The notes: generated by a model not told the origin, from the letters alone. 32,000 bases of DNA from Candidatus Saccharimonadota bacterium (GCA_016699145.1 CP064962.1:570001-602000); one strand, 5' to 3'. Shown: positions 1 to 28,726, counted from the stretch's first letter. A program made the numbers and translations.

Positions 1-86
1 GCTTTTTCAGAGAAGCAATCTTAGCAATCATCAGCGCAATAGAAACAATCGAACGGAACAAAGGGGTAAGCACACTTCTATCAGCA

Positions 87-629
87 ATGGGACAAGTAAT
101 CACCCCCATCAGAGAGGCAGTCACGACTCTCTTAGACCAATTGGAGGGGATAGAACCAATCAAAGATGAAGAAGCCCTATTAAGAGTTGTTGAAAATAAA
201 CTCAGTAGTCTAGCGAGTATAGAAGAAGTCAATAAAAATTTTCTCGAAAAGTGTTTCGTTCCCCCTGGACCAAAAACAGAAACGTTCACTCGCCAGATAG
301 GAAGAGAATCAATTACTACAACTACGGTATCAGGAGATCAGCTACGCAACGCATTCGGACAGCTAAACAAAAACCCATTTGCCGAGACCCGAGAAACCTA
401 TGGAGACACTGCAGCAGATTTCCTACACGAGCTAACAATAGTTCTTCGAATAATCAGCGATTATGATGCAAGCTCAACTCATAAGTCAGATGCATTCTCA
501 ACAGCTTTTAACGAACTAAACACCGCATTAAGGGATTGTACAATGGGGGACGTGCCAAGACACCTCGAAAAATTTGTAAGGACACTCAAAGAAAAGGCTG
601 CAGGAAATGTAGTCCGACTGCATCCATAA
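87..629 (+). CDS. hypothetical protein, possibly 5' partial because the frame stays open to the window edge
   Basis: 180-aa ORF from the first ATG. The same frame has no stop from nt 3 onward, so the true start may lie upstream of the window. I recognise no family motif. Confidence 0.4.
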   Translation: MGQVITPIREAVTTLLDQLEGIEPIKDEEALLRVVENKLSSLASIEEVNKNFLEKCFVPPGPKTETFTRQIGRESITTTTVSGDQLRNAFGQLNKNPFAETRETYGDTAADFLHELTIVLRIISDYDASSTHKSDAFSTAFNELNTALRDCTMGDVPRHLEKFVRTLKEKAAGNVVRLHP

Positions 630-690
630 TCTTTGCCTTGAAACCCTCTAAAATGCTAGGGTGATTTTATCTGTATTTACTAAAAATCCT

Positions 691-1104
691 ATGCCCACCC
701 TCATCACCATCCAAGCCACCGTCAATGCTCCCGTCGAAAAAGTCTGGGACATGTGGACCCAACCCGAGCACATCACAAAATGGAACGCTGCTTCCGACGA
801 CTGGCACACCCCCAGCGCCACGAACGACCTACGCGTCGGTGGAAAATTCACCTCTCGCATGGAAGCCAAAGACGGCAGCATGGGCTTCGATTTCTGGGGA
901 ATTTATGACGAAGTGAAACCCAACGAACTCCTCGCCTCCACCATGGGTGACGGTCGTTCCCTCAAAGTCAGCTTCACGGCAAAAGAGGGCCAAACAGAAG
1001 TCGTCGAAACCTTCGAAGCCGAAAGCGAAAATTCCGAAAACATGCAAAAAGACGGATGGCAATCCATCCTGAACAACTTTAAAAACTACGTTGAAAGCTT
1101 TTAA
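691..1104 (+). CDS. SRPBCC-superfamily protein (AHSA1 / Aha1-like START-fold domain)
   Basis: ITIQATVNAPVEKVWDMWTQPEHITKWN...DLRVGGKFTSRMEAKDGSMGFDFWGIYDEV...GWQSILNNFKNYVE is the typical AHSA1-type SRPBCC pattern. ATG 691 is preferred over the GTG at 661 given in the ORF track. Confidence 0.75.
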   Translation: MPTLITIQATVNAPVEKVWDMWTQPEHITKWNAASDDWHTPSATNDLRVGGKFTSRMEAKDGSMGFDFWGIYDEVKPNELLASTMGDGRSLKVSFTAKEGQTEVVETFEAESENSENMQKDGWQSILNNFKNYVESF

Positions 1105-1120
1105 TGCGTCCTTAATAACA

Positions 1121-1804
1121 ATGACTTCTCAAAAAAAATTCCTCCTTTTCGGCTTAGTTCCCGCGCTCATCTTCCAAACAATAGGGGCCACCCTTTACTT
1201 CGATCTTTGGGCGGAAGGAACCGGGGCCAAAATCATTTACAGCCTGACCAAAGTGCTGCTTTTGATCTGGCCGTTGCTGTGGTGGAAGTATGTCAAAACA
1301 CCCCTAAAAATAACCCCTCATAAAGCAGCCAAAGAAATCGCATGGGGCCTGAGTACCGGCCTCTTTCTTTCTCTAGGAATTTTATTGGTCTTCACTGTCT
1401 TTCCAGAAAAAGACCTCTTAACAGAACAAATTCAAGAAAAAATCGATGCCTATTTTGGAATGAGCGCAGCGCTCTATTTGCTCTTCAGCGTCTTCTTATG
1501 TGTCGGACATTCTCTTTTAGAAGAATACTATTGGCGTTGGTTCACAGGTTCGGGCTTGAAACAAACCCTCCCAAAAATGCCGGCACTCTTCCTCACCAAC
1601 CTCGGTTTTGCAGCTCATCATTTCATCATCTTAAACTCGTTGACCACTGGAACCTGGGCCGTGTTTGGAACTTTCGGCGTCTTCGCGGGAGGAGTGATCT
1701 GGTCCCTGCTCCATGAAAAAACCCAATCCCTCTTCGCCCCTTGGCTCAGTCACCTCTGTGTGGATGTAACGCTCATGGGCATCGCTTACTATCTCCTTTT
1801 TTAA
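1121..1804 (+). CDS. CPBP-family intramembrane glutamic endopeptidase (CAAX protease / Abi-like)
   Basis: Polytopic membrane protein with the three CPBP motifs: LLEEYYWRWF (EExxxR), GFAAHHF (FxxxH) and SHLCVD (distal His). ATG 1121 is preferred over TTG 1091. Confidence 0.75.
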   Translation: MTSQKKFLLFGLVPALIFQTIGATLYFDLWAEGTGAKIIYSLTKVLLLIWPLLWWKYVKTPLKITPHKAAKEIAWGLSTGLFLSLGILLVFTVFPEKDLLTEQIQEKIDAYFGMSAALYLLFSVFLCVGHSLLEEYYWRWFTGSGLKQTLPKMPALFLTNLGFAAHHFIILNSLTTGTWAVFGTFGVFAGGVIWSLLHEKTQSLFAPWLSHLCVDVTLMGIAYYLLF

Positions 1805-2247
1805 TGGACTATTTTTGCGACACAAAATGGACACTCAAAAAGTATGTCATTTTTCTAGATATAGATGGAACTCTCGTCGGCGAGGGTGAAACAAAAATAG
1901 ACAGCAAAACAAAACGCGCTTTTGATGAGCTCAAAAAGAACAATTTCATTGTGCTCTGCTCCAACAGTCCCAATAAAAAACGCAGCGAAAAAATGGCTAA
2001 AGAACTCAAAGTGCTGTGGAACTCAGGCCCGCACAAAAAACCCAACAAAGAAGTTTTGACCTATATCAAGCTTCCCACGAATAAAAAACACGCAGTGATC
2101 GGCAACCTACACTGCATCGATGGGCGCTTTGCCAAAGCCATCGACGCTGAATTTTTTCCCGTCAAAACCTTGGTAAACCCCAAAGAAAATTGGATCGACA
2201 AAATCTTCTACTGGATCGACTCTCATCTCCTTTCCAAATGCATTTAA
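1804..2247 (+). CDS. HAD-superfamily phosphatase (subfamily IIIA, YqeG-like)
   Basis: FLDIDGTL (DxDxT motif I), LCSNS (motif II) and HKKP (motif III Lys). The ATG overlaps the CPBP stop codon (TAATG). Confidence 0.6.
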   Translation: MDYFCDTKWTLKKYVIFLDIDGTLVGEGETKIDSKTKRAFDELKKNNFIVLCSNSPNKKRSEKMAKELKVLWNSGPHKKPNKEVLTYIKLPTNKKHAVIGNLHCIDGRFAKAIDAEFFPVKTLVNPKENWIDKIFYWIDSHLLSKCI

Positions 2248-3068
2248 ACGAAATCCGAAAACTGCTGCGCCTCGAACAATGGTACAAAAACATCCTCATT
2301 GTGACGGCTTTCTTGTTCACTCAAAATCATCTTGCTCCGCTGCATCTCGCTCTCGGTTTCTTAGGCTTCTGCACGCTCTCGTCAACGACCTACATCATCA
2401 ACGATTGGATGGATCGAGAAAAAGACAGACATCATCCACAAAAAAAAGACCGCCCCCTTGCGTCAGGCAAAGTCACCGGCCTGCAAGCATTGATAACCGG
2501 GACCCTCCTACTCGCCTTCAGCCTTTACGTCTGCACTCAACTCGGCTCGCTCTACACCTTCAGCGCGGCCATCTACTTCCTTGGAACCAACGCCTATTCT
2601 TTTGGACTCAAAAACATTCCTCTGCTCGACATCGCCATAATCTTGCTGAATTTTAACCTGCGAACTTTGGCTGGATTTCAAGCATTTCCAGCCTTGAACG
2701 ACAGTGTCTACTTTGTGCTGCTCAGCGGTTTGGTGCTCTTTGCCATCACCTCCAAACGCAAATCCGATCGCGCCGTGCTGGGTGAAAAAGCCGTGGCTCA
2801 TAAACCTGTGCTCAAGTTTTACACCAAGGGCCTCTGCCGCATCATCATCACCTTTTCTTACTTCCTCGTCTGTCTAGGAGTCTTCACTCTCGCCATGCAA
2901 AAAGAAGAGCGCCTCATCGAAGCCCTACTCTTTGTGCTCATGATGCTCTACACCAACCGATGCTTCAAACAAAAACCAGAACTCGCCATCAAGCCGCACT
3001 ATCTGTTCACAAATCCAGTCTGGATCTTGCTTCTTTTAACACTGCTGCTCCTGCCACTGCTCGGATAA
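2238..3068 (+). CDS. UbiA-family prenyl-phosphate phosphoribosyltransferase-like protein (decaprenyl-phosphate phosphoribosyltransferase / DPPR synthase type)
   Basis: LRLEQWYKNILIV N-terminus and NDWMDREKDRHHPQKKDRPLASGKV (NxxxDxxxD plus HPxKxxRPxASG). Polytopic membrane protein. The start overlaps the HAD gene by 10 nt. Confidence 0.7.
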   Translation: MHLNEIRKLLRLEQWYKNILIVTAFLFTQNHLAPLHLALGFLGFCTLSSTTYIINDWMDREKDRHHPQKKDRPLASGKVTGLQALITGTLLLAFSLYVCTQLGSLYTFSAAIYFLGTNAYSFGLKNIPLLDIAIILLNFNLRTLAGFQAFPALNDSVYFVLLSGLVLFAITSKRKSDRAVLGEKAVAHKPVLKFYTKGLCRIIITFSYFLVCLGVFTLAMQKEERLIEALLFVLMMLYTNRCFKQKPELAIKPHYLFTNPVWILLLLTLLLLPLLG

Positions 3069-3070
3069 AT

Positions 3071-3099
3071 TTGACAAGCCTCCCGTTTTCCTTTAAAAA
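3071..3099 (+). promoter_or_regulatory. candidate sigma70-type promoter for the rpsJ leader: TTGACA-17-TAAAAA
   Basis: Perfect -35 TTGACA at 3071-3076, a 17-nt spacer, and an A/T-rich -10 TAAAAA at 3094-3099. It lies 3 nt after the UbiA stop codon. Confidence 0.4.
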
Positions 3100-3203
3100 A
3101 AGCGCACAACAAAAGTGAAGCTTCTGCTTTTAGACGCTTCCTCGGCCGCCAAAGCCGGGACACCTCGATTCAAACTTTCCCAGCGCAAGCTGCGTGAACC
3201 TAA

Positions 3204-3232
3204 ACCGAGGCGTACAACCCTCGGTATTTTTT
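3204..3232 (+). terminator. intrinsic-terminator-like hairpin plus U-tract inside the rpsJ leader (candidate attenuator)
   Basis: ACCGAGG (3204-3210), loop CGTACAAC, CCTCGGT (3219-3225), then A and TTTTTT (3227-3232). It ends 14 nt before the rpsJ ATG. Confidence 0.55.
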
Positions 3233-3245
3233 AACCCTCAATACC

Positions 3246-3656
3246 ATGGCTAAGCAAAAGATTCGTATCAAGATCAAGTCCTTTGACCACAAGGTCATCG
3301 ACGAAGCCGCTCGTCTCATTCTCGAAACCGCAGAAAAAACCGGCGCCATCGTCATGGGTCCCATTCCCCTGCCCACTGACATCGAAAAATTCACAGTGCT
3401 CAAGTCCACCTTCGTTCACAAAAACGCCCGTGACCAATATGAAATGCGCACCCATAAGCGCCTCATCGACATCACCGAGACCACTTCTGCCACCATCGAA
3501 GAGCTGTCCAACTTGTCTCTTCCTTCTGGAGTGGACATCGAAATCAAGATGATCATGGAAGCCAGTGAAGAAAAAGAAAAAGAAAAAGAAAAAGAAAAGG
3601 AAAGTGCAAAGAAAGCTCCTGCAAAGAAAGCTGCAACAAAAAAGAGCAGCAAGTAA
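3246..3656 (+). CDS. rpsJ: 30S ribosomal protein S10 (uS10) with a ~32-aa Glu/Lys/Ala-rich C-terminal extension
   Basis: [26 protein letters not shown]...RTHKRLIDI is canonical S10. The tail is [32 protein letters not shown]. Confidence 0.95.
3570..3599 (+). repeat. hexanucleotide microsatellite (GAAAAA)x4 plus one imperfect unit, inside the rpsJ 3' end
   Basis: Perfect GAAAAA units begin at 3570, 3576, 3582 and 3588, followed by GAAAAG at 3594. The repeat encodes the (EK)n tail. Confidence 0.9.
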
Positions 3657-14387: not shown

Positions 14388-15032
14388 ATGGATCTCGTAC
14401 TCTTCGGAATGCAAGGCTCCGGAAAAGGCACGCAAAGCAAAGCCATCGCTGAACATTGTGGACTCCTTGTTTTTGAAACAGGAGCTGAACTTCGCCGTCT
14501 CTCCACAGAAGATTCCGAACTGGCTCACAAGGTGAAAAGCATCATCGAATCTGGACATTTGGTGCCCACCGAAGTGGTGATGGAAATCATCGCAGATTTC
14601 TTGCACCGCCTTCCCACGGGGAAGAATGCTCTTTTCGATGGCATACCTCGCAGTGGTGATCAAAAGGAACAATTCGATGCCCTGATGGTAAAAGAAGGCC
14701 GCTCTTTCAAAGGCCTACTCATTGAACTGAGCGAAGAAGAAGCGGTGAAACGTCTCACCACTCGCCGCATGTGCCCCGCCTGCAAAACCATTTATCCGGC
14801 CAGCTACAGCCAAGACAACTGTGAAAAAGACAGCAGCACACTGGTGACTCGTCAGGACGATACTCCCGAAGCCATTCGCGTGCGTCTAGACACCTTCCTC
14901 GAAAAAACTGTGCCTGTGATCAATGCCTACAAAACAGAAGGAAAAATGCTGACCGTTAAAGGAGAGCAAGCCATCGAAAAAGTGACTTTGGACATTCAAG
15001 AGGTCCTTAAAACGGACTTCTCATGGGCATGA
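14388..15032 (+). CDS. adk: adenylate kinase
   Basis: P-loop GMQGSGKGTQ, LID segment CPACKTIY...C...TRQDD, and position after secY. Confidence 0.93.
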   Translation: MDLVLFGMQGSGKGTQSKAIAEHCGLLVFETGAELRRLSTEDSELAHKVKSIIESGHLVPTEVVMEIIADFLHRLPTGKNALFDGIPRSGDQKEQFDALMVKEGRSFKGLLIELSEEEAVKRLTTRRMCPACKTIYPASYSQDNCEKDSSTLVTRQDDTPEAIRVRLDTFLEKTVPVINAYKTEGKMLTVKGEQAIEKVTLDIQEVLKTDFSWA

Positions 15033-15796
15033 CTAAAGTAAAAACGCCGGAACAAATCAAAGCCATGCGGGAAAGTTGCCACATCCTTGGGCTCATTTTA
15101 AAAGAGCTCGAAGACATGACGGTGCCAGGCATCACTCCCATGGATCTGGAGCGCCGCGCCGAAGAACTCTGCGCAAAGTACAAAGTGCGCCCCGCCTTCA
15201 AAGGCTATCACGGCTATCCCTACATTTTGTGCACCTCCGTAAACGACCAAGTGGTGCACGCCTTCCCGACTGAAGTCCCTCTGCAAGAAGGGGATATTCT
15301 TTCGATTGATGGTGGAGTCGTGGTGAGCGGCATGGTCAGCGACTCGGCTGTAGCGGTGGTGGTGGGACAAAAAACTTCAGACCTCGCTCAGCGACTCGTA
15401 GACACCTGCATCAAAGCCATGTGGGCGGGCATTCATCAGGTGAAGGATGGATGCCGTGTGGGAGACATCGGTCATGCCATTCAAAGGGTCGTGGAAGACG
15501 CCGGCTTCACTGTAATCACCGAACTCACCGGCCATGGCATCGGAGAAAACATGCATGAAGCTCCTTACATCTTGAATTACGGTGAACCTGGCAAAGGGAC
15601 ACAGCTTCGTGCCGGAATGACCATCGCAATCGAACCCATCATTTGCACGGGCAAAAATGCCATCGAAACCCTCGATGACGACTGGACCCTCGTGACCACC
15701 GACGGCAGCCTCGCCATGCAACACGAACACACCGTGCTCATCACCAAAACCGGCTACGAAGTGCTCAGCTTGAGGCCTGGGGAGAAGGAGGTATAA
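15023..15796 (+). CDS. map: type I methionine aminopeptidase
   Basis: FKGYHGYPYILCTSVNDQVVHAFP, DGGVVVSGMVSDSA, HGIGENMHE and TIAIEP...HEHTVLIT metal-ligand pattern. It overlaps adk by 10 nt. Confidence 0.95.
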   Translation: MGMTKVKTPEQIKAMRESCHILGLILKELEDMTVPGITPMDLERRAEELCAKYKVRPAFKGYHGYPYILCTSVNDQVVHAFPTEVPLQEGDILSIDGGVVVSGMVSDSAVAVVVGQKTSDLAQRLVDTCIKAMWAGIHQVKDGCRVGDIGHAIQRVVEDAGFTVITELTGHGIGENMHEAPYILNYGEPGKGTQLRAGMTIAIEPIICTGKNAIETLDDDWTLVTTDGSLAMQHEHTVLITKTGYEVLSLRPGEKEV

Positions 15797-15821: not shown

Positions 15822-16370
15822 ATGAAAAAAATCTTCTTATTGCTCAGTCTCAGTCTTTTAATATTGACCGGCTGCGTTAACAGTGAAGAACAAAGCATGA
15901 AACTGACTGAACATGCAAATCCTGAAATTTGCCAAGAAGGAATCAAGGGTTCTGAACTTTCAGATGTTCTTCCTGAACAAATCACACGCTGTTTTTCTTT
16001 GGGGGATCTCACTCTCGCCTTTGTGACTCAACCCAACGCGTGGAATGCCCTCCCCGAAACTCGAGTCTGGGAATCAGAAGGTAATATTGCCTGGAGCGGC
16101 CTTCTTGCCAAACCGATCAAAGGAAAGTGGGAACTTTTATATAAAATCCCCGATGAAGATTTCAACCCTGTGAACCTCATCTTAGAGGGTGAGCAATTGA
16201 TTTTAGATGCCGCCGACGATTCCGGAGCCGGTAGTGGCGAAGGGGCCCTACAACGTTACGTGTATCCTGTAGGGGTAGCAGATGAACTACTCAAGACTTG
16301 GCAAAAACTCAAGTGCACAGGCCAATACATCCCTGAGACCTACAAGTACGAAGCATTTTTGTGTACATAA
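15822..16370 (+). CDS. hypothetical lipoprotein
   Basis: Signal peptide MKKIFLLLSLSLLILTGC with an L-T-G-C lipobox. No recognisable domain. Confidence 0.7.
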   Translation: MKKIFLLLSLSLLILTGCVNSEEQSMKLTEHANPEICQEGIKGSELSDVLPEQITRCFSLGDLTLAFVTQPNAWNALPETRVWESEGNIAWSGLLAKPIKGKWELLYKIPDEDFNPVNLILEGEQLILDAADDSGAGSGEGALQRYVYPVGVADELLKTWQKLKCTGQYIPETYKYEAFLCT

Positions 16371-16374
16371 AAAC

Positions 16375-17163
16375 TCATACTTTCTTCCTTTTCTCCTTGG
16401 AAGGTGCTTCCATCTGATATTTTTCTGCAGCCTCCCAAGCCAGTTCAAAAACCTGCTTAAACAAATGAGTGATCTCTTTGCTTTCAATGATGATCCCAAG
16501 TTTCTCCTTCCAATCAGCAATCATGATTTTATCGTCAAAGAAATTCACTTCGGGCGTAAAATCCAACTTTGATTTGGGAATGATTCGACTCGTTCTCAAG
16601 TGCAACTGATCTTTTTCGTGCAAGTCTCGATCCACCGGCGTATCCATCAAAATCCCTCGAATAGGAATTCCTTTCTCTGCACGACGTTCATAGTACCGCG
16701 GGAAATACCAACCCAAAAGATCTTGATTCACCTGAGCATTCGCAAAAGCACGGATTTCTTCTTTGGAAGTTAGGGTTTCTTCATACACACGGACCAGCCC
16801 TTCTTCTCCCTCATAAAAATACACACGTGGTCGATCCGACAAAGCGTGATAATGAGTCGTCAATTCAGGCAGTATCCTCTTTGCTTCCTGAGAAAGCCTC
16901 AAAAAACGATCCGCTTCTTCTTTAAGATAAGTGATGAGCTTCTCGGGGGGCTGCGCCCGATAACTTCGAAAGCCCTTATGTTCAGAAGAAACCAGAAGTC
17001 CGCGCTGCACCAAACTCTCCAGAATATCGTACGCCGTGGTCCGGTTTATACCCGCTTTCTTTGCGAGTGTCGAAACGGGTGACGCTTCCCCCATTTCTAA
17101 ACTGACCAAGTACAGTGCCGCTTCTTTAGAATTGAGCCCAAGTTTTTGCAATTGTTCCATCAT
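16375..17163 (-). CDS. TrmB-family transcriptional regulator
   Basis: The N-terminus LGLNSKEAALYLVSLEMGEASPVSTLAKKAGINRTTAYDILESLVQRGLL is the TrmB winged-HTH signature. About 170 aa of C-terminal domain follow. Confidence 0.8.
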   Translation of the reverse strand: MMEQLQKLGLNSKEAALYLVSLEMGEASPVSTLAKKAGINRTTAYDILESLVQRGLLVSSEHKGFRSYRAQPPEKLITYLKEEADRFLRLSQEAKRILPELTTHYHALSDRPRVYFYEGEEGLVRVYEETLTSKEEIRAFANAQVNQDLLGWYFPRYYERRAEKGIPIRGILMDTPVDRDLHEKDQLHLRTSRIIPKSKLDFTPEVNFFDDKIMIADWKEKLGIIIESKEITHLFKQVFELAWEAAEKYQMEAPSKEKRKKV

Positions 17164-17238
17164 AGAGCTGTGTGGGAAAATTTCGTCAGAATTACATTAA
17201 GGCTAATCTAACAGATTTAAAAAGTCAAATATTTTGTG

Positions 17239-17261
17239 GTAAAATTACAACGTAAATTTAC
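17239..17261. promoter_or_regulatory. candidate operator: GTAAAATTAC-AAC-GTAAATTTAC (the second unit is a perfect 10-bp palindrome)
   Basis: Read directly from the divergent TrmB / Cys-rich intergenic region. The site overlaps the -35 of the predicted Cys-rich gene promoter. Confidence 0.35.
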
Positions 17262-17284
17262 AAAACCTCAAAAAAAACTAGAAT
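17257..17284 (+). promoter_or_regulatory. candidate promoter of the Cys-rich gene: TTTACA-16-TAGAAT
   Basis: TTTACA at 17257-17262, a 16-nt spacer, and TAGAAT at 17279-17284, about 44 nt upstream of ATG 17328. Confidence 0.45.
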
Positions 17285-17327
17285 ACGGCTGTTTAACGCA
17301 TCGTATGGATTGGATCAAACTACTCTC

Positions 17328-18905
17328 ATGAAAACCTGTACCACCTGCCAAATTTCCTTTGAAGTCAGTCCCGAAGAAGTGGCCTTTTTGGAGAAAATTT
17401 CACCCGTTTACGGAACACAAAAATTTCCAATCCCTGAGCCTGAAAAATGCCCGGATTGTCGCCTGGCACAAAGAACCATTCAAAGAAACGAGCAATACCT
17501 CTATAACAACAACGGGAAAATTGCTCTCTATCATACAGACTCCCCTTTTAGAGTGGTGACCCACGAAGAATGGTGGAGCGAAAACTGGGATGCGCTTGCT
17601 TATGGACGTAACGTGGATTTTTCAAGAAATTTCTTCGAACAAATCCAGGAAATCAATTTGCAAATCCCTCGAGTGAACTTGATCCAAGTCAGCAATGAAA
17701 ATTGCCCTTACACCACGGGAACGGCCTACAGCAAAAATTGCTACCTCATCAACTGCAGTGAAAACGACGAAGATTGTTTTTACGGCAAGTTGATTCAATC
17801 CTGCAAAGACGTGATGGACTCGGCTTACTGCTACGACAGCGAGTTTTTATACGAATGTTTTTATGTTAAGAACTGCTACAATTGCCGTTACGTGTATTAC
17901 AGCCAAAATGCCTACGACTGCTCTTTTTGCGACAACGTGGCCCGCTCGAGCAATTGCTTCCTTTGCACAGGTTTAACTGGAAAAGAATATCACTTCATGA
18001 ATCAGCCTGTTTCAAAAGAAGAGTATGCGATCAAAGTCGCCGAGGCAATGAAAGATTTAACAAAAACAAAAGCCATTTTTGACGAAATGCGTGCCCGCAG
18101 AATTTATAAATACGCCAACATTGTAAGCAGCGAAAATTCAACTGGAGACTTTTTGACAAACTGCAAAAACTGCACCGAAAGCTACGACATGAACGACAGT
18201 GAAGACTGCAAATACGTGACAGTTGGCGTGCAAGTGAAAGATTTGATAGACTGCTCCAACATGTACATCAAACCCGAGTTGAACTATCAAGTGATGGGGA
18301 CGATCGGAACTTACAATGTGATTTTTTCGACCTATATTTTCAATTCACAAAATGTAGCCTACAGCCAATTTTGCTACAACTCTAAAGATCTATTTGGATG
18401 CGTGGGACTGCGAAACAAACAGTATTGCATTTTGAACAAGCAGTACACAAAAGAAGAGTACGAAACCTTAGTCCCCAAAGTCATCGCTTTGATGGGCAGT
18501 GATTTTGGAAAATTCTTCCCTGCCAAGCATTCAGCCTTTGCCTACAATGAAACTGTGGCCAACGACTATGTGCCTCTAACGCGAGAACAAGCCCTGGCCC
18601 AAGGTTATCGATGGCGCGAAAAAGACATGAAAGAGTATCAACCCGCTCACGGAGACCGCTTGGCTTGCGAGAGCTGCGGAAAAAACTACAAACCGATTCC
18701 TCAAGAAATCGCTCGTCTCAAAGAATTCCCGGTGCCAAGCAAATGCCCAGACTGTAGACACATGACACGGATGCGCTTACGCAATCCCCACAAGATTTAC
18801 TTACGCAACTGTTCAAAATGCAAGGGCCCCATGAATTCAACCTTTGCACCCGAAAGACCTGAAACCGTTTACTGCGAAAAGTGTTACCTGGCAGAGCTCT
18901 ATTGA
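17328..18905 (+). CDS. cysteine-rich, internally duplicated zinc-ribbon protein of unknown function (525 aa, 32 Cys)
   Basis: The terminal modules are CxxC...CPDCR (N-terminus) and CESC...CPDCR...CSKC...CEKC (C-terminus). Two central Cys-ladder blocks each end in C(T/V)GL..K.Y....N...(S/T)KEEY. ATG 17328 is preferred over TTG 17310. Confidence 0.75.
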   Translation: MKTCTTCQISFEVSPEEVAFLEKISPVYGTQKFPIPEPEKCPDCRLAQRTIQRNEQYLYNNNGKIALYHTDSPFRVVTHEEWWSENWDALAYGRNVDFSRNFFEQIQEINLQIPRVNLIQVSNENCPYTTGTAYSKNCYLINCSENDEDCFYGKLIQSCKDVMDSAYCYDSEFLYECFYVKNCYNCRYVYYSQNAYDCSFCDNVARSSNCFLCTGLTGKEYHFMNQPVSKEEYAIKVAEAMKDLTKTKAIFDEMRARRIYKYANIVSSENSTGDFLTNCKNCTESYDMNDSEDCKYVTVGVQVKDLIDCSNMYIKPELNYQVMGTIGTYNVIFSTYIFNSQNVAYSQFCYNSKDLFGCVGLRNKQYCILNKQYTKEEYETLVPKVIALMGSDFGKFFPAKHSAFAYNETVANDYVPLTREQALAQGYRWREKDMKEYQPAHGDRLACESCGKNYKPIPQEIARLKEFPVPSKCPDCRHMTRMRLRNPHKIYLRNCSKCKGPMNSTFAPERPETVYCEKCYLAELY

Positions 18906-18919
18906 TCCGGCTCCAGCCC

Positions 18920-19783
18920 CTACTCTTCCAAAAGCCCACTCACATACCACCGCATGAGATTCCAATTGCTGTTCTTGGGCTGCAAAGTATCGATGGCAAA
19001 GGTGTCTTTACAGGTTTCTGGCTTGGTTTCATCTTCACAAATCCTGATGGGATGAGAAGTCACGTAATCCACAGGCACAGGCACTGCCGATAAAACATTG
19101 ACCGTAGAGATCACATTGCCTCCATCGATTTCATAATTTTGATACTTCAAAACGTATTGCGTGGCCTGCGCCAAAGTGATGTCTGTTTCCAAGGCACCCA
19201 AAATCGTGGTCATGAGATCGAACAAAGTCGCGGCATCCTCCACACCCAAGCTTCTAAACTTATCTTGAATTCCTTGTAAAATGAGCTGCTGACGTTCCGC
19301 GCGAGAATAGTCCGACGTGGTGTGTCTAGAACGAGCCACGCGCAACGCCTCAGTTCCATCCAAATGATGCAGCCCCGCTTCATAGTACAAAGTCGAGCAA
19401 ACATCTCCATCGCAAACCTTATAAGTGGGGTCGATGAGATCCTCTTTCAAAGTCACATCAATGCCTCCCAATTCATTCACAATATCGCGGAAAACATACA
19501 TGTCCACCAAAGCATAATGCTGAATCTTATAACCCACCACATCTTCCACCGCTGCGAGCTGAGCCAAGACCCCTTTCCCAGCATAAATGCTGTTGATTTT
19601 TCTATTCTGATAATAAAGATCACGAGGAATACTGACCAAAACCACCTTCCCATCGACAGAGTCGACATGCGCAAAAATCATGGTGTCCACATTGGAACCA
19701 TGCTTCCCCATCAATAAAACATTCAAATTGTTAGGGTCATCAACGAGCTCAACATAGTCCGGGACGAAACTGGGGAGGTCCAA
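18920..19783 (-). CDS. LytR-CpsA-Psr (LCP) family domain, probably the C-terminal part of a frameshifted longer gene
   Basis: NVLLMGKHGSNVDTMIFAHVD...VSIPRDLYY...KINSIYA...GYKIQHYALVDMYVFRDIVNELGGIDV...LDGTEALRVARSRH...DYSRAERQQ is the LCP core. It has only a TTG start and no TM or signal peptide of its own. Confidence 0.8.
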   Translation of the reverse strand: MDLPSFVPDYVELVDDPNNLNVLLMGKHGSNVDTMIFAHVDSVDGKVVLVSIPRDLYYQNRKINSIYAGKGVLAQLAAVEDVVGYKIQHYALVDMYVFRDIVNELGGIDVTLKEDLIDPTYKVCDGDVCSTLYYEAGLHHLDGTEALRVARSRHTTSDYSRAERQQLILQGIQDKFRSLGVEDAATLFDLMTTILGALETDITLAQATQYVLKYQNYEIDGGNVISTVNVLSAVPVPVDYVTSHPIRICEDETKPETCKDTFAIDTLQPKNSNWNLMRWYVSGLLEE

Positions 19784-20946
19784 AGTTTTTTTTTACTCGA
19801 GAACTCAAGCAGCTGCACCGCCGTCACCAAACCTTGAGTGTCTTGTCCATCGGACAGGCTGACTTTCACTTCCCCTGTAGACTTGTCCAAAATTAAAAGA
19901 CGCAAGACAGCGCCCCCGGCATTCACAATAGGATACTGAATGGCCGTCTCTGTTTCCGTAGCAGAGCCCACGCTCAAACCCGCATTTTTCAAAGAGGCCT
20001 TAAAAGCAGGATCTTCCAAAACTTCGGCAATTTTAGCTTTCTGCTCATCCACTTTCTTCTGTAGTGCCGTGCGGGCATCCATTGCAGTGAATAAAGCGAG
20101 CAAGTCTTCTTGCACTTCAGCCACCGAAGCTCCGCTCAACTCCTCGGCAGGGGCCTGGGTGCTGCACACCAGCTGCGCATTCTTCTTTAGAACCTCACAT
20201 TCTGCAATAGGAGTGGCCTCCGAATTTTGAAAAACAATCACATAAGATCCCAGTTGATCCGCTTCAGGAAGCACTTTAAGTGATTTTTCCATCACAAGCG
20301 TTTGAAAATCTTGCCCGAGAATAAAAATGGACAAAGCTGTGCGCTGCGCGTTGACCTTTTGAACAGTGCTTCTCAACGTGTCCAAGTCCGTGTCCAGATG
20401 AGCCTTCACTTCAACGATGGAACTGTCCACCGACTGTCCATCGCTAAGCTCAAATTCAGACCCATAAACGTGTACCTCCACCTTGCCATCGTAAGCCAAA
20501 GAAAGAGTCAACAAAGGCACATTGCCCACACTGGCATCTAAAAAGATGTAGTCCAAGTCTTGCTCTGTATAAGTGCCCTGTGGGTTGCTCAGACTCAAAC
20601 CTTTTCCATTCCAGTAAGCATCTTGCACAGCGGTCTGCAAAGCAGCCAAATTGGCTTCATAACGCGCTTTGTTTTCTTCATAGACGCCCAAATTGTTCAC
20701 AAAATCAAAAAGCAAAGTACCGAGCTCATCTTCTTCGGATTCCTCTTCACCTCCAAAAAAATCAGACAAGCCACCGCTATCTTCAGCACCTGGGCTGAGT
20801 TCGACCAGCTTCTTTTCTAAGTGAGAGATTTGAAAAAATTGAAACACAACCGCCAAAATCAAAAGCGTGAGCAGGCCTCCTTGAAGGGAGAGTTTTTTGC
20901 TTTTAACAGAGGGTTCAGGAGTGGCGGGAGTTTTCTTGGCTGACAT
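19723..20946 (-). CDS. membrane-anchored hypothetical protein, the probable N-terminal part of the LCP protein
   Basis: MSAKKTPATPEPSVKSKKLSLQGGLLTLLILAVVFQFF (one TM helix) followed by an extracytoplasmic region of about 340 aa. It ends 20 codons after an A9 tract, where the LCP frame opens. ATG 20946 is preferred over the ORF-track start at 21081. Confidence 0.6.
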   Translation of the reverse strand: MSAKKTPATPEPSVKSKKLSLQGGLLTLLILAVVFQFFQISHLEKKLVELSPGAEDSGGLSDFFGGEEESEEDELGTLLFDFVNNLGVYEENKARYEANLAALQTAVQDAYWNGKGLSLSNPQGTYTEQDLDYIFLDASVGNVPLLTLSLAYDGKVEVHVYGSEFELSDGQSVDSSIVEVKAHLDTDLDTLRSTVQKVNAQRTALSIFILGQDFQTLVMEKSLKVLPEADQLGSYVIVFQNSEATPIAECEVLKKNAQLVCSTQAPAEELSGASVAEVQEDLLALFTAMDARTALQKKVDEQKAKIAEVLEDPAFKASLKNAGLSVGSATETETAIQYPIVNAGGAVLRLLILDKSTGEVKVSLSDGQDTQGLVTAVQLLEFSSKKKLWTSPVSSRTMLSSLMTLTI

Positions 20947-21007
20947 CGGACATGAGTCTACCGCAGAGCAGAAAACTACAAAAGAGATTTTTGAATTAAA
21001 AATTCCC

Positions 21008-21036
21008 TTGCAAAAGCCAAACCGCCCATGTAGAAT
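21008..21036 (+). promoter_or_regulatory. candidate promoter of infA-rpmJ-rpsMKD-rpoA: TTGCAA-17-TAGAAT
   Basis: TTGCAA at 21008-21013, a 17-nt spacer, and TAGAAT at 21031-21036, 28 nt upstream of the infA ATG. Confidence 0.5.
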
Positions 21037-21064
21037 CCCGCTGCTTTTATCTTTAACCAGATAA

Positions 21065-21391
21065 ATGACCAAACAAGTCATTCAGATTAAAGGAATCGTC
21101 GTAGAATGTTTACCTAATGCGACATTCCGTGTGAGACTGGATGACCCTGCCTACCCGACTGACCACGTAGTGCTCTGTCACCTCTCAGGCAAGATGCGGA
21201 TCAATTACATCCGAATCATCCCGGGAGATGCGGTCACCGTCGAGTTGACACCTTACGATCTATCGAAGGGGCGTATTGTTTTCCGCCACAAGAAAGGTGG
21301 ACCTCCAATGCCTACCCAAGAGGCTCCAGCTGTAGAAGCTGCTCCTCCAGCTCCCACTGAAACTTTAGACCCTAATAGCCCGGCTCAATGA
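21065..21391 (+). CDS. infA: translation initiation factor IF-1 with an internal insert and a ~33-aa Pro/Ala-rich C-terminal tail
   Basis: [17 protein letters not shown]...[37 protein letters not shown] is the S1-like IF-1 core. The tail is [31 protein letters not shown]. Confidence 0.93.
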
Positions 21392-26114: not shown

Positions 26115-27722
26115 ATGAATCCTTTGTACACCCTCGCCACCCCCGCTGTATTTAAAGAAGTGAAAAGCAGTCTGAGCGGCCTCACAAGCAAAGAGGCACA
26201 AAAAAGACTGGCGGAATTCGGTCCGAATCGCATTGAAAAAAAAGGCGGAAAAGGGCCTTTAAAAATCTTCCTCAGCCAGTTTTGGAACCTGATGGTACTC
26301 ATCCTGATGGTGGGAGTGAGCATCAGCAGTTTTTTAGGAGAATGGATCGATGCAATCGCCATCCTTATGGTCATCGTGCTCAATGCCGTGATTGGTTTTT
26401 TACAAGAATACAAAGCCGAAAAAGCCATTGAAGCTTTGAGGAAAATGACCGCCGCTTACGCCCTTGCCTTGCGAGACGGAAGCATACAAAAAGTGCCTGC
26501 GGAACAATTGGTCCCCGGCGACATCGTCATTCTAGAAGAAGGCACCCAAGTGCCGACCGACGGCAAACTTTTAGAGGTGGAAGGGATGAAGACCATTGAA
26601 GCCAGCCTGACCGGAGAAAGCAATGCCGTGGAAAAAAGCTTAAAAATGCCAAAAAAGGCCGAGAGTTTAGGGGATTTATGTCACATGGCATTCATGGGCA
26701 CGGTGATCAGCCAAGGTCATGGACGAATGGTGGTGCTGCAAACCGGCATGAAAACAGAATTCGGACAAATCGCTCAAATGGTCCAAGAGCAAAAAGACGA
26801 AGCCACTCCTCTGCAAAAGAAAATCACCCAACTCATTCAAACCCTAAGTCTTTTGACACTCGGTGTCATGGGAGTGGTTTTTCTGCTGGCGGTATTGCAA
26901 GGAAAGAGCATGAGTGAAGTTTTACTGCTCTGCATCAGTTTGGCCGTGAGCGTGATCCCCGAAGGCCTGCCCACCATCATCACTCTCACTTTGGCGCTGG
27001 GAGTTCAAAAATTGGCCAAAGAAAACGCGGTGGTGCGACGTCTTTCCGCGGCAGAAACTTTGGGAAGCACCGACATCATTTGCACCGACAAAACCGGCAC
27101 TCTGACGCAGAACCAAATGACCGTCGAAGCCCTTTACATAAACGGCTATTGGAAGGACATCCAAGGGAACGGCTACGCCCCCGAGCCCCAATTCAAACCT
27201 GGCTCCCAAGAAGAGACCCTGCTCCTACAAATTGGCGGACTCTGCAACAACGCCACTCTTTTTAAAAGCAAAAACCTTTGGAACATCACCGGCGATCCCA
27301 CAGAAGGCGCCCTGCTGACCTTAGCAGAAAAAGGAGGACTGGATTTAGAAACCTTGCAAAAAAAATGGCCGCGAAAAAAAGAATTGGTTTTTGATTCTTT
27401 TCGTAAACGCATGTCCACTTTGAACCAAAGCACTTTGTTCACTAAAGGAGCTCCGGACAGTGTGTTGGAAACCTGTACCCACCTTTTGGAACGAGGCAAA
27501 GAAGTGCCCCTCACACCTGCTCTTAAAAAATCCATCCTCAAAGAAATAGAACAAAAATCTTCGGAGGCGTATCGCCTTTTGGGAATGGCTTATGGAAAAC
27601 ACAAAAAAATCCCGAAGAAAAAAATCTGGTTTTTGTGGGCTTGGTGGCACTCATGGATCCGCCGCGTGAAGAAGCTAAAAAAGCCATCGAAATTTGCAAA
27701 GAAGCTCAAATTGAAGTGCTGA
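26115..27722 (+). CDS. P2-type cation (Ca2+-type) transporting ATPase, N-terminal fragment. The authentic sequence ends near 27609; the remainder is an out-of-frame tail.
   Basis: TGES (SLTGESNAVEK), PEGLP (VIPEGLPTIITL) and the phosphorylation site ICTDKTGTLTQN. The final ~37 aa (IPKKKIWFLWAWWHSW...) look like frameshifted nonsense. Confidence 0.85.
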   Translation: MNPLYTLATPAVFKEVKSSLSGLTSKEAQKRLAEFGPNRIEKKGGKGPLKIFLSQFWNLMVLILMVGVSISSFLGEWIDAIAILMVIVLNAVIGFLQEYKAEKAIEALRKMTAAYALALRDGSIQKVPAEQLVPGDIVILEEGTQVPTDGKLLEVEGMKTIEASLTGESNAVEKSLKMPKKAESLGDLCHMAFMGTVISQGHGRMVVLQTGMKTEFGQIAQMVQEQKDEATPLQKKITQLIQTLSLLTLGVMGVVFLLAVLQGKSMSEVLLLCISLAVSVIPEGLPTIITLTLALGVQKLAKENAVVRRLSAAETLGSTDIICTDKTGTLTQNQMTVEALYINGYWKDIQGNGYAPEPQFKPGSQEETLLLQIGGLCNNATLFKSKNLWNITGDPTEGALLTLAEKGGLDLETLQKKWPRKKELVFDSFRKRMSTLNQSTLFTKGAPDSVLETCTHLLERGKEVPLTPALKKSILKEIEQKSSEAYRLLGMAYGKHKKIPKKKIWFLWAWWHSWIRRVKKLKKPSKFAKKLKLKC

Positions 27723-28726
27723 TGATCACCGGCGACCACGCCCTAACGGCCATCGCCATTGGACAAAAATTGGGCCTAAATTCAAAACACGCCCTCACGG
27801 GAGCTGAGATCGAAAAAATGAAAGATCACGAATTGACGGCGGCACTCAAAACGACTCGCATCTTCGCTCGGGTGAGTCCGCAACATAAGGTTCGAATCCT
27901 AGAACTTTTGCAAAAAAAAGGCCACATCGTGGCCATGACGGGGGATGGGGTCAACGACGCCCCCGCCTTGAAAAAAGCAGACATAGGAATCGCCATGGGC
28001 ATCACGGGAACAGACGTGTCCAAAGAAGCCAGCGACATGGTGCTCATGGATGATAATTTCAGCACCATCGTGAGCAGCGTAAGCCGCGGACGAACCATTT
28101 ATTCAAATGTCAAAAAATTTGTACGTTTTGTACTCAGCGCCAATTTTGGGGAAATCACCGTGGTGAGCGCCATTTTCATCATGGGGGGCCCTATTCCTTT
28201 CTTGCCTTTGCAAATTTTATGGGTGAATCTGCTCACGGACTCTCTTCCGGCTCTAGCTCTGGGGGTGGATGAAGGAGAAGCGGGCCTCATGAAAAAAGCT
28301 CCTCGTAAAATGAATGAAAACATTTTAAAAGACCTCATTGGAGTCGGTCTATTGGCCGGACTCATCTGCGCCGGGGTCAGTTTGGTGCTGTATGGTTTTT
28401 ACAAAGAAAGCAGCACTTTGCCTCACCTGCGCACCGTACTGTTGTGCACCATCGTGGTCTTTGAAATGCTGCTGGTGTTTTCGGTGCGCTCAGAAAACAA
28501 ACATTATTTTCACCATTTTTTCCAAAATCCTTACCTTTTGCTGGGAGTGGGCAGCAGTGTGCTTTTGCAAATCGCTGCTGTCTACTTTGTGCCCCTACAG
28601 AAGCTGCTGGGCACGGCGGCTCTCAGCACCCACGACTGGATACGCATTGTGATCGCCTGCGCCGCAGGCGTAGCCCTTTTGGAAATCTGGAAATTTTTTA
28701 AAAATCTTGCTCATGGGCTTCGCTAA
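27635..28726 (+). CDS. P2-type cation transporting ATPase, C-terminal fragment (-1 frame relative to the N-terminal fragment)
   Basis: GLVALMDPPREE, MITGDH, TGDGVNDAPALKKADIGIAMG and the C-terminal TM helices. The frame is open upstream through ...NPEEKNLVFVG. Confidence 0.85.
   Translation: MGLVALMDPPREEAKKAIEICKEAQIEVLMITGDHALTAIAIGQKLGLNSKHALTGAEIEKMKDHELTAALKTTRIFARVSPQHKVRILELLQKKGHIVAMTGDGVNDAPALKKADIGIAMGITGTDVSKEASDMVLMDDNFSTIVSSVSRGRTIYSNVKKFVRFVLSANFGEITVVSAIFIMGGPIPFLPLQILWVNLLTDSLPALALGVDEGEAGLMKKAPRKMNENILKDLIGVGLLAGLICAGVSLVLYGFYKESSTLPHLRTVLLCTIVVFEMLLVFSVRSENKHYFHHFFQNPYLLLGVGSSVLLQIAAVYFVPLQKLLGTAALSTHDWIRIVIACAAGVALLEIWKFFKNLAHGLR

Follow-up and report, generated by a model that had tools for sequence, protein, structure and literature searches.

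A large unnamed family of cysteine-rich proteins in Patescibacteria, with a predicted double beta-helix between zinc modules and tandem arrays beside a VirD4-like ATPase

The gene considered here lies on the + strand at positions 17328-18905, stop codon included, of a 32,000-nucleotide stretch of Candidatus Saccharimonadota bacterium (GCA_016699145.1, CP064962.1:570001-602000); this whole stretch is called the window below. The gene encodes a cysteine-rich protein of 525 amino acids, which in our comparisons belongs to orthogroup "A". In the six-frame list of open reading frames (ORFs) the frame is open from a TTG at 17310 to 18905 (+), and the ATG at 17328 gives the 525-residue product; a start at this ATG agrees with the M-x-x-C start found in homologues. 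A deposited protein, P0001, annotated as hypothetical and from a Candidatus Peregrinibacteria bacterium, matches the product over its full length with 100% identity. An original prediction, made from the sequence of the window, had described a protein of this length with 32 cysteines, two cysteine-ladder cores and zinc-ribbon ends. The cysteine count was reproduced exactly from the translation: the residues are at positions 4, 7, 41, 44, 126, 138, 143, 150, 159, 168, 177, 183, 186, 198, 201 and 210 for the first half of the series, and at 213, 279, 282, 294, 309, 349, 358, 367, 447, 450, 473, 476, 495, 498, 516 and 519 for the second. These positions also reproduce the spacing quoted for the first ladder (NC-x10-NC-x3-NC-x6-C-x8-C-x8-C-x8-C-x5-C-x2-C-x11-C-x2-C-x8-C-x2-C), and the two strings said to end the cores were both found, CTGLTGKEYHFMNQPVSKEEY at residues 213-233 and CVGLRNKQYCILNKQYTKEEY at residues 358-378. 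Cysteine accounts for 6.1% of its residues, whereas the figure for 12 other ORFs of the window is 1.0% (binomial P = 2.5e-15). The protein was found to have neither a signal peptide nor a hydrophobic membrane segment, its maximal Kyte-Doolittle value over 19 residues being 0.96; since it lacks both, it is predicted to be soluble and to reside in the reducing cytoplasm.

The two ends of the protein carry the best conserved cysteines. The N-terminal basic zinc module, of the treble-clef type (residues 1-66; 17328-17525, + strand) was delimited from its conservation and its homology to the C-terminal module. It contains a four-cysteine site, C4/C7/C41/C44, which is 88-100% conserved among 138 relatives, and then a helix with the arginines R45, R49 and R53, a ladder conserved at 96-98% in the same relatives. 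It is followed by a degenerate second ribbon and a connector (residues 67-118; 17526-17681, +), recognised in family alignments by the motifs WWSxxWD and FFEQ. Residues W82, D97, F102, Q105 and P114 of the connector are invariant or nearly so. The second N-terminal ribbon is degenerate throughout the family, position 63 alone being often a cysteine (67%). The C-terminal basic double zinc module (residues 444-525; 18657-18902, +) was identified from its cysteine sites and from matches of relatives to PF23477. Its first site, C447/C450/C473/C476, is 49-99% conserved and degenerate in some paralogues; its second site, C495/C498/C516/C519, is 97-100% conserved and has the exact spacing CxxC-x17-CxxC. 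A second arginine ladder (R477/R481/R493) is found here, and in both ladders each arginine is at least 91% conserved and stands on the helix after the second knuckle. The C-terminal module thus has eight cysteines and the N-terminal one four, with its second ribbon decayed, as had been claimed. Median net charges over the 138 relatives are +5 for the N-terminal and +7 for the C-terminal zinc module, and -5, -4 and -7 for the two cores and the segment that follows them.

Only the last finger resembles a described domain. Its likeness to the treble-clef fingers zf_Tbcl and zf_Tbcl_2 (PF13451, PF23477) concerns the last 30 residues, C495-x2-C498-x17-C516-x2-C519, and in one source a homologue is listed as a 'CxxC-x17-CxxC domain-containing protein'. 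PF23477 matches 26 of 33 family members (best E-value 6.3e-8); the 525-residue protein scores 17.9 bits, under the curated cut-off of 27. These are short domains of unknown function, and they span less than 10% of the protein. In a PDB profile search the final finger could also be matched to the latter half of LIM domains (CRP1/CRP2, muscle LIM protein; best E-value 0.0017), and the Pfam LIM family is weakly touched by 7 of the 33 members. However, the element here is a single finger of about 33 residues and its matches fall under the family thresholds, whereas LIM domains are eukaryotic double fingers. One relative, P0247 (808 amino acids), extends beyond the C-terminal module by 250 residues (556-808), for which no Pfam match was found. 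A stretch of this extension, SSLAELGKISGVAPLAALKSLTDSLIQKDLV, looks winged-helix-like by eye and hints at a regulator-like fusion; a gene-calling artefact is possible.

The internal duplications proposed for this protein were examined on the single sequence (Smith-Waterman alignment, 1000 shuffles) and on family sub-alignments (hhalign). Both stood up to formal self-alignment. The end modules are homologous: N(1-100) against C(440-525) gives z = 11.1, a score reached by 0 of 1000 shuffles, and the corresponding profiles align with a probability of 98.9% (E-value 1e-17). The two cores are homologous as well, core 1 (101-245) against core 2 (246-395) giving z = 14.1, again with 0 of 1000 shuffles, and a profile probability of 99.3% (E-value 3.6e-20). 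The control comparisons did not pass: the N-terminal module against core 1 gives z = -0.5 (hhalign 0.1%) and the C-terminal module against core 2 gives z = 1.0 (hhalign 2%). The two-fold symmetry of the original prediction therefore holds for composition and not for a single tandem duplication: the order of modules is zinc module, core, core, zinc module, a mirror-like A-B-B'-A' rather than A-B-A-B, and a single tandem duplication would not yield such an arrangement.

Between the zinc modules, four segments follow one another on the + strand. Core 1 (residues 119-228; 17682-18011) is an acidic predicted beta-helix of about 17 hexads with 13 cysteines, delimited from the hexad table and the DSSP assignment of the structural model. 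A predicted helical hairpin (residues 229-258; 18012-18101) separates it from core 2; its two model helices cover residues 230-241 and 244-257, with a predicted local distance difference test score (pLDDT) of 94-98. Core 2 (residues 259-372; 18102-18443) repeats core 1 in a more degenerate form and has 7 cysteines, as judged from hhalign, the hexad table and strands of period six. The last segment (residues 373-443; 18444-18656) is made of a helix and a conserved, loop-rich acidic part, recognised from its conservation and a pLDDT of 96-98. Its family consensus reads EWGxFFPxxxSPFxYNETxAxEYxPL...W, and E392, G394, P398, S402, Y406, N407, A411, P416 and W429 are at least 90% conserved; it has no Pfam match. 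The isoelectric point (pI) is 4.46 for core 1 and 4.5-4.9 for the solenoid body.

A first AlphaFold2 model, built with 33 sequences, had low confidence in the cores and its Foldseek search was meaningless; it was replaced by a second model. With 138 diverse relatives AlphaFold2 predicts, with a pLDDT of 92.4 and a predicted template-modelling score (pTM) of 0.92, two beta-solenoids between the zinc modules, with regular "EEEE--" strands of period six in core 2. The best PDB matches of this model in Foldseek are left-handed beta-helix proteins of the hexapeptide class (GlmU, LpxD, LpxA, gamma-carbonic anhydrase), along with sugar O-acetyltransferases, and the best viral matches, from BFVD, are of the same class (phage "Hexapeptide repeat"); the E-values range overall from 2e-4 to 1e-2, and the superpositions are weak (TM-scores of about 0.1, root-mean-square deviation of about 20 A). 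The solenoid fold that the original prediction had suggested is thus supported at the level of the model. When the family alignment is written in sixes, each core shows about 17 hexads with the consensus [CLIV]-x-x-[CS]-x-[DN]. The cores share six-residue solenoid units with LpxA, LpxD, the C-terminal domain of GlmU and gamma-carbonic anhydrase, but the repeat of these proteins is [LIV]-[GAED]-x2-[STAV]-x, and the present protein differs from them in having two helices per chain flanked by zinc modules and no conserved catalytic histidine. No match to Hexapep (PF00132/PF14602) was obtained at E <= 1 for the protein or at E <= 0.05 for the 33 members. The hexad appears to be a distinct sequence solution for a beta-helix. 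In its fold the protein varies on known kinds, joining a hexapeptide-type beta-helix to treble-clef zinc fingers.

The phasing of the core cysteines is strict: 12 of the 13 cysteines of core 1 share one phase modulo 3, and cysteine occupancy in this core has an autocorrelation of 0.68 at lag 3 and peaks again at lags 9 and 12. This regularity had led to the proposal of a metal- or disulfide-stapled solenoid. In such a solenoid the laddered cysteines would bind metal or iron-sulfur clusters or form disulfides, and the protein could be a metal or redox buffer; the overall cysteine content also speaks for it. Conservation in the family does not support it, because the core cysteines exchange freely among relatives. 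Ladder cysteines are at least 90% conserved among the 138 relatives at only five positions (C138, C207, C210, C358 and C367); most other positions are cysteine in 12-75% of sequences and alternate with Ser, Leu, Val and Ile. These five positions speak for a stapled core, as does the family consensus CxxCxxCxxC at 204-213, but the 525-residue protein itself has Val at 204 and Ser at 207. Full-length paralogues contain from 24 to 49 cysteines, with a median of 38. A ligand-like pattern of conservation is seen only in the terminal zinc modules, and the lack of a signal peptide places the protein in a reducing compartment. The only non-zinc-finger PDB sequence matched by the 138-sequence profile is the antifreeze protein of Tenebrio molitor (1EZG), with a non-significant E-value of 4.2. 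Searches of PDB sequences with the single protein and with this profile returned this match and LIM-like finger matches only. What recalls 1EZG is a narrow beta-solenoid whose cysteines follow Asp or Asn and are spaced by multiples of three or six residues. The Tenebrio protein has a 12-residue coil, is secreted, depends on disulfides and presents a Thr-x-Thr ice-binding face; here, in contrast, the cysteines are exchangeable and there is no signal peptide. Peribacteria proteomes are unusually cysteine-rich (PMC4736985), which also counts for a stapled core; an identity of the cysteine-rich proteins of that study with this family was rejected, as those are large secreted proteins. We regard the stapled solenoid as unlikely. 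Conserved metal binding appears to be limited to the three terminal four-cysteine sites, and the core cysteines would be small packing residues of a narrow beta-helix, in a lineage with a generally cysteine-rich proteome, rather than metal or disulfide ligands.

The gene encodes a real protein from an unnamed and very large family. We identified at least 7,263 clusters at 90% identity and 3,342 representatives at 50% identity, 1,312 of these with E < 1e-30. Nearly all members have 540-570 residues, and all are named "hypothetical protein". Where the source names are informative, they are Peregrinibacteria, Peribacteria, Peribacteraceae, Gracilibacteria, Abawacabacteria and the unclassified "Patescibacteria group"; a cluster look-up of distant representatives gave one further Peribacteraceae name. 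Members were also found in bins labelled Bdellovibrionales or Pseudomonadota (L019, L062 and L068, the L numbers denoting loci of our comparison), and these are probably mis-binned contigs of Peregrinibacteria or Gracilibacteria. Phage, plasmid and IMG/VR collections contained no relatives, and no sign of a mobile-element origin was seen. Pfam searches with 33 members, and Pfam, NCBIfam, PHROGs and PADLOC searches with the protein, matched the terminal zinc finger alone. The original prediction could name no characterised family, and this agrees with our searches: the core is covered by no model of these four collections and by no PDB family.

The genomic context of the family was compared in 80 loci anchored on family members and taken from species-representative genomes. 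These loci contain 215 family ORFs, with up to eight or more within 13.6 kb. The median identity of copies within a locus is 40%, equal to that between loci, and of 179 full-length copies, 167 have their best match in a different genome. On this comparison the family is a set of old, conserved paralogue lineages that are orthologous across genomes. Orthogroup "A" is present as one copy per locus. Old orthologous paralogues of this kind point to specialised subunits or adaptors more than to copies that diversify rapidly.

These arrays are interspersed with divergent TrmB-like regulators and are associated with an ATPase of about 745 amino acids, which matches T4SS-DNA_transf, TrwB_AAD_bind, DUF87 and TraG-D_C. 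It is found in 19 of the 80 loci: 16 of the 44 that have two or more family copies, against 3 of the 36 that have one. A reciprocal set was made of six ATPase homologues chosen only for their long contigs. In five of them, one to six or more co-oriented full-length paralogues lie directly upstream of the ATPase, and the last paralogue ends 53-94 bp before the ATPase start. A TrmB-like gene accompanies four of these five loci, at the head of the array in L085, L086 and L088 and inside it in L087. The sixth ATPase-anchored locus, L089, has no array. This link between tandem paralogue arrays and a VirD4-like ATPase is new and was absent from the original prediction. The identity of the ATPase across the lineage is 67-76%, far above that of the cysteine-rich family. 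Its N-terminus is DUF8128 according to precomputed annotation, a separate Pfam scan giving no match. No membrane segment was found in it, as no 19-residue window exceeds 1.3 among 19 sequences. In a Pfam census of 101 other flanking proteins no family occurs more than twice, TrmB and the ATPase being the sole recurring neighbours. Small toxin-antitoxin genes (RelE/ParE/YafQ-like, Phd-like) were seen repeatedly in or beside arrays at L029, L034, L079, L024, L031, L074 and L081. A literature search on the family, on cysteine-rich or zinc proteins of Peregrinibacteria and Gracilibacteria, on CxxC-x17-CxxC and on DUF8128 returned no description; at the level of the family and of the system, nothing comparable is present in the databases or in the literature searched.

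The ATPase resembles type IV coupling proteins (VirD4/TraD/TrwB) in its T4SS-DNA_transf, TrwB_AAD_bind and TraG-D_C domains, and the arrays lie upstream of it in the same orientation. It differs from them in being soluble, with DUF8128 replacing the membrane helices, and in having no adjacent relaxase or VirB4: neither Pfam family was found in the ATPase-anchored neighbourhoods. The cysteine-rich proteins resemble the substrates or adaptors of coupling proteins in gene order. The proteins could accordingly be exported effectors, that is, substrates of a patescibacterial type IV secretion apparatus: the VirD4-like ATPase would recognise their basic C-terminal module and pass them to the surface or the interior of host cells. 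Among the known signals for type IV secretion are C-termini with a positive charge, and the conserved C-terminal module is basic, as mentioned above. The domains of the adjacent ATPase and the position of the arrays directly upstream of it agree with this explanation. So does a T4SS pilin gene located 9 kb from the ATPase in L089. The observation at that locus (positions 1-3340) is of large PKD-repeat proteins about 7-9 kb upstream of the ATPase, one of which has a T4SS_pilin domain; this neighbour may tie the ATPase to a patescibacterial type IV secretion apparatus. In addition, a 2025 survey counted 5,713 VirD4-like homologues in Patescibacteria, of which 148 are near virB4, their role being unexplained (PMC12102498). 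Several features are nevertheless difficult to reconcile with export. The ATPase lacks a transmembrane segment and has DUF8128 in place of the membrane anchor of a coupling protein, and no virB4-type genes were seen beside the arrays. The cysteine-rich proteins form old orthologous groups in which conservation extends along the entire chain, which is not what is expected of variable payloads on a shared signal, and three folded zinc sites in a fold as compact as the model predicts would be awkward for a secretion channel. We consider export of the proteins as effectors rather unlikely.

The charge distribution raises another explanation, that of a nucleic-acid mimic or nucleic-acid binder. In the first case the acidic beta-helix would take the shape of DNA, in the second the zinc modules would attach to DNA or RNA; either way the protein would modulate a DNA-handling enzyme or the ATPase. 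Pentapeptide-repeat proteins are known to imitate DNA, and the acidic solenoid lies here between basic zinc modules with their arginine ladders. The ATPase belongs to the FtsK/HerA/VirD4 superfamily of DNA translocases, and a winged-helix gene is adjacent. However, the repeat has a period of six and not of five as in the pentapeptide-repeat mimics, no DNA- or RNA-binding family or defence system was matched, and the absence of relatives from the phage, plasmid and IMG/VR collections also counts against such a role, which we judge highly unlikely.

The winged-helix gene of the window is a TrmB-like regulator of 262 amino acids, encoded divergently at 16375-17163 (- strand) and recognised by PF01978 (TrmB; E-value 3.4e-12, 46.5 bits against a cut-off of 25.6). 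Its C-terminal 171 residues (16375-16890) have no Pfam match at E <= 1 and contain no recognisable sugar-binding domain of the archaeal TrmB/TrmBL1 type, and scores to the NCBIfam TrmB equivalogs are far under their cut-offs. The pairing of the two genes, from which conditional expression had been suggested, is conserved beyond the window. A TrmB-like homologue is found within 6 kb in 48 of the 80 related loci, and 26 of the 72 loci with enough upstream sequence have a divergent one that ends at most 500 bp ahead of the orthologous copy. A shared control region of 164 bp (17164-17327) separates the trmB-like gene (-) from the cysteine-rich gene (+), and it was aligned with five orthologous intergenic regions. 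The best sigma-70-like promoter (17257-17284, + strand) has 10 of 12 consensus matches, with a -35 box TTTACA, a 16-nt spacer and a -10 box TAGAAT; its -35 box aligns with TTGAC in the five orthologous loci, the intergenic regions being otherwise diverged. A 19-nt element, GTGTGG-N7-TCGTCA (17170-17188), stands 7 bp from the start codon of the trmB-like gene and is invariant in six diverged intergenic regions. It is present exactly in 12 other loci, of which 11 fall in the closest TrmB subgroup (L002, L004-L011, L013 and L016), mostly at the same position by the trmB-like gene, and it has no other zero-mismatch site in the window. This element is a candidate autoregulatory operator or a candidate leader or 5' untranslated region element. 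A pair of neighbouring AT-rich palindromes, GTAAAATTAC and GTAAATTTAC (17239-17248 and 17252-17261), reaches into the predicted -35 box; they were rejected as a general operator, similar GTAA..TTAC sites being present in 4 of 27 other intergenic regions between trmB and cysteine-rich genes. Control of the cysteine-rich gene by the TrmB-like protein is plausible, given the conserved gene order.

The window holds only the minimal pair, the trmB-like gene and the cysteine-rich gene. Both belong to a five-gene insertion (15822-21081) between map (15023-15796) and infA (21065-21391), in the ribosomal cluster secY-adk-map / infA-rpsM. The insertion encodes a lipoprotein, the TrmB-like regulator, the cysteine-rich protein, an LCP glycopolymer transferase and a 452-residue protein without a family. 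This position recurs only in L001, and the array of L087 lies about 3 kb from a similar cluster; it was therefore rejected as a functional clue, not being general. The ORF of the 452-residue protein (19723-21081, -), which has no Pfam match, overlaps the start of the LCP gene (18920-19783, -) by 61 nt and the infA start by 17 nt, and its true start is probably further downstream. Elsewhere in the window a P-type cation ATPase is split over 26115-28726, in one ORF with the N-terminal, E1-E2 and Cation_ATPase domains (26115-27722) and another with the Hydrolase and C-terminal domains (27635-28726), which points to a frameshift, a pseudogene or a fault in the assembly. Almost all 1-kb bins of the window (1-32000) have a negative GC skew, and the genes outside the insertion are nearly all on the + strand; coding strands are C-rich, and the window falls entirely on one replichore arm. 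No match was obtained when the window was scanned with Rfam and for tRNA genes.

The neighbouring genes bear on a further explanation, that the protein is an enzyme, a divergent member of the left-handed beta-helix class such as an acyl- or acetyltransferase, which would act together with neighbouring envelope genes on sugar nucleotides or envelope polymers. The best Foldseek matches of the model are of this kind, TrmB regulators are classically sugar-responsive, the gene downstream in the window encodes the LCP glycopolymer transferase, and the arrays of L083 and L085 lie among epimerase, nucleotidyl-transferase and glycosyltransferase genes. Yet no enrichment of envelope genes is seen around the family (at most 2 of 101 flanking proteins), the hexad is not that of Hexapep, TM-scores are about 0.1, and the cores contain no conserved histidine or other obvious catalytic residue. 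Over the whole protein, none of the histidines reaches 85% conservation in the 138 relatives, and the conserved polar residues D97, D164, D308, E392, S402 and E460 form no recognisable catalytic pattern. An enzyme of this class has, in our opinion, a very small chance of being the right answer.

The explanation that we favour, tentatively and at somewhat less than even chances, is that the protein is a rigid scaffold or adaptor without catalytic activity, equipped with basic zinc "hands", which would work with the DUF8128/VirD4-like ATPase under TrmB-like control. The non-catalytic character is suggested by the lack of a well-conserved histidine, the small number of conserved polar residues and the absence of a Hexapep or enzyme family match. 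The two basic zinc modules with their arginine ladders would be the hands, binding nucleic acid or a partner protein, and the acidic double beta-helix would be a spacer or an oligomerisation body. Transcription would start from the conserved sigma-70-like promoter, and the divergent TrmB-like regulator probably controls both genes. At the level of the family, the proteins would be clients or adaptors of a soluble ATPase of the hexameric type, made of DUF8128 and a VirD4/TrwB-like P-loop domain; this partnership is proposed because the arrays are co-oriented with the ATPase and end immediately before it. The anatomy of the protein is much more secure than the scaffold explanation as a whole, and the ATPase partnership is less secure. 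Several points weigh against the scaffold explanation. The scaffold role and the partnership are proposed from architecture and gene order, and no homologue of the protein is characterised. The conserved segment 393-429 could be a catalytic or ligand pocket of an unrecognised type. The five well-conserved core cysteines and the consensus CxxCxxCxxC leave room for a metal site in some paralogues. Finally, neither in the window nor in its closest relatives (L001-L004) does the ATPase lie within reach, and orthogroup "A" is often single-copy and unlinked to the ATPase.

On a broader scale, the paralogues, the TrmB-like regulators and the DUF8128/VirD4-like ATPase could together form an undescribed, lineage-specific cytoplasmic machine of Peregrinibacteria and Gracilibacteria, or else a substrate repertoire of the ATPase, with the paralogues as subunits, adaptors or cargo; we put this forward as a possibility with less than even chances. 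Patescibacteria have tiny genomes, yet relatives of the organism studied here spend 10 kb or more on arrays of an unnamed family, and an array may count eight genes or more, each about 560 codons long. That the paralogues are kept distinct across species implies an important lineage-specific function. The gene-order link provides a testable partner for abundant coupling-protein homologues that are mostly unlinked to secretion genes and unexplained (PMC12102498), at least for the Peregrinibacteria subset. If the proposed machine or repertoire is real, some of the thousands of "orphan" coupling-protein homologues of Patescibacteria would for the first time have a functional context, and if the link with the ATPase holds, it would open a route into the handling of DNA or protein by these episymbionts.

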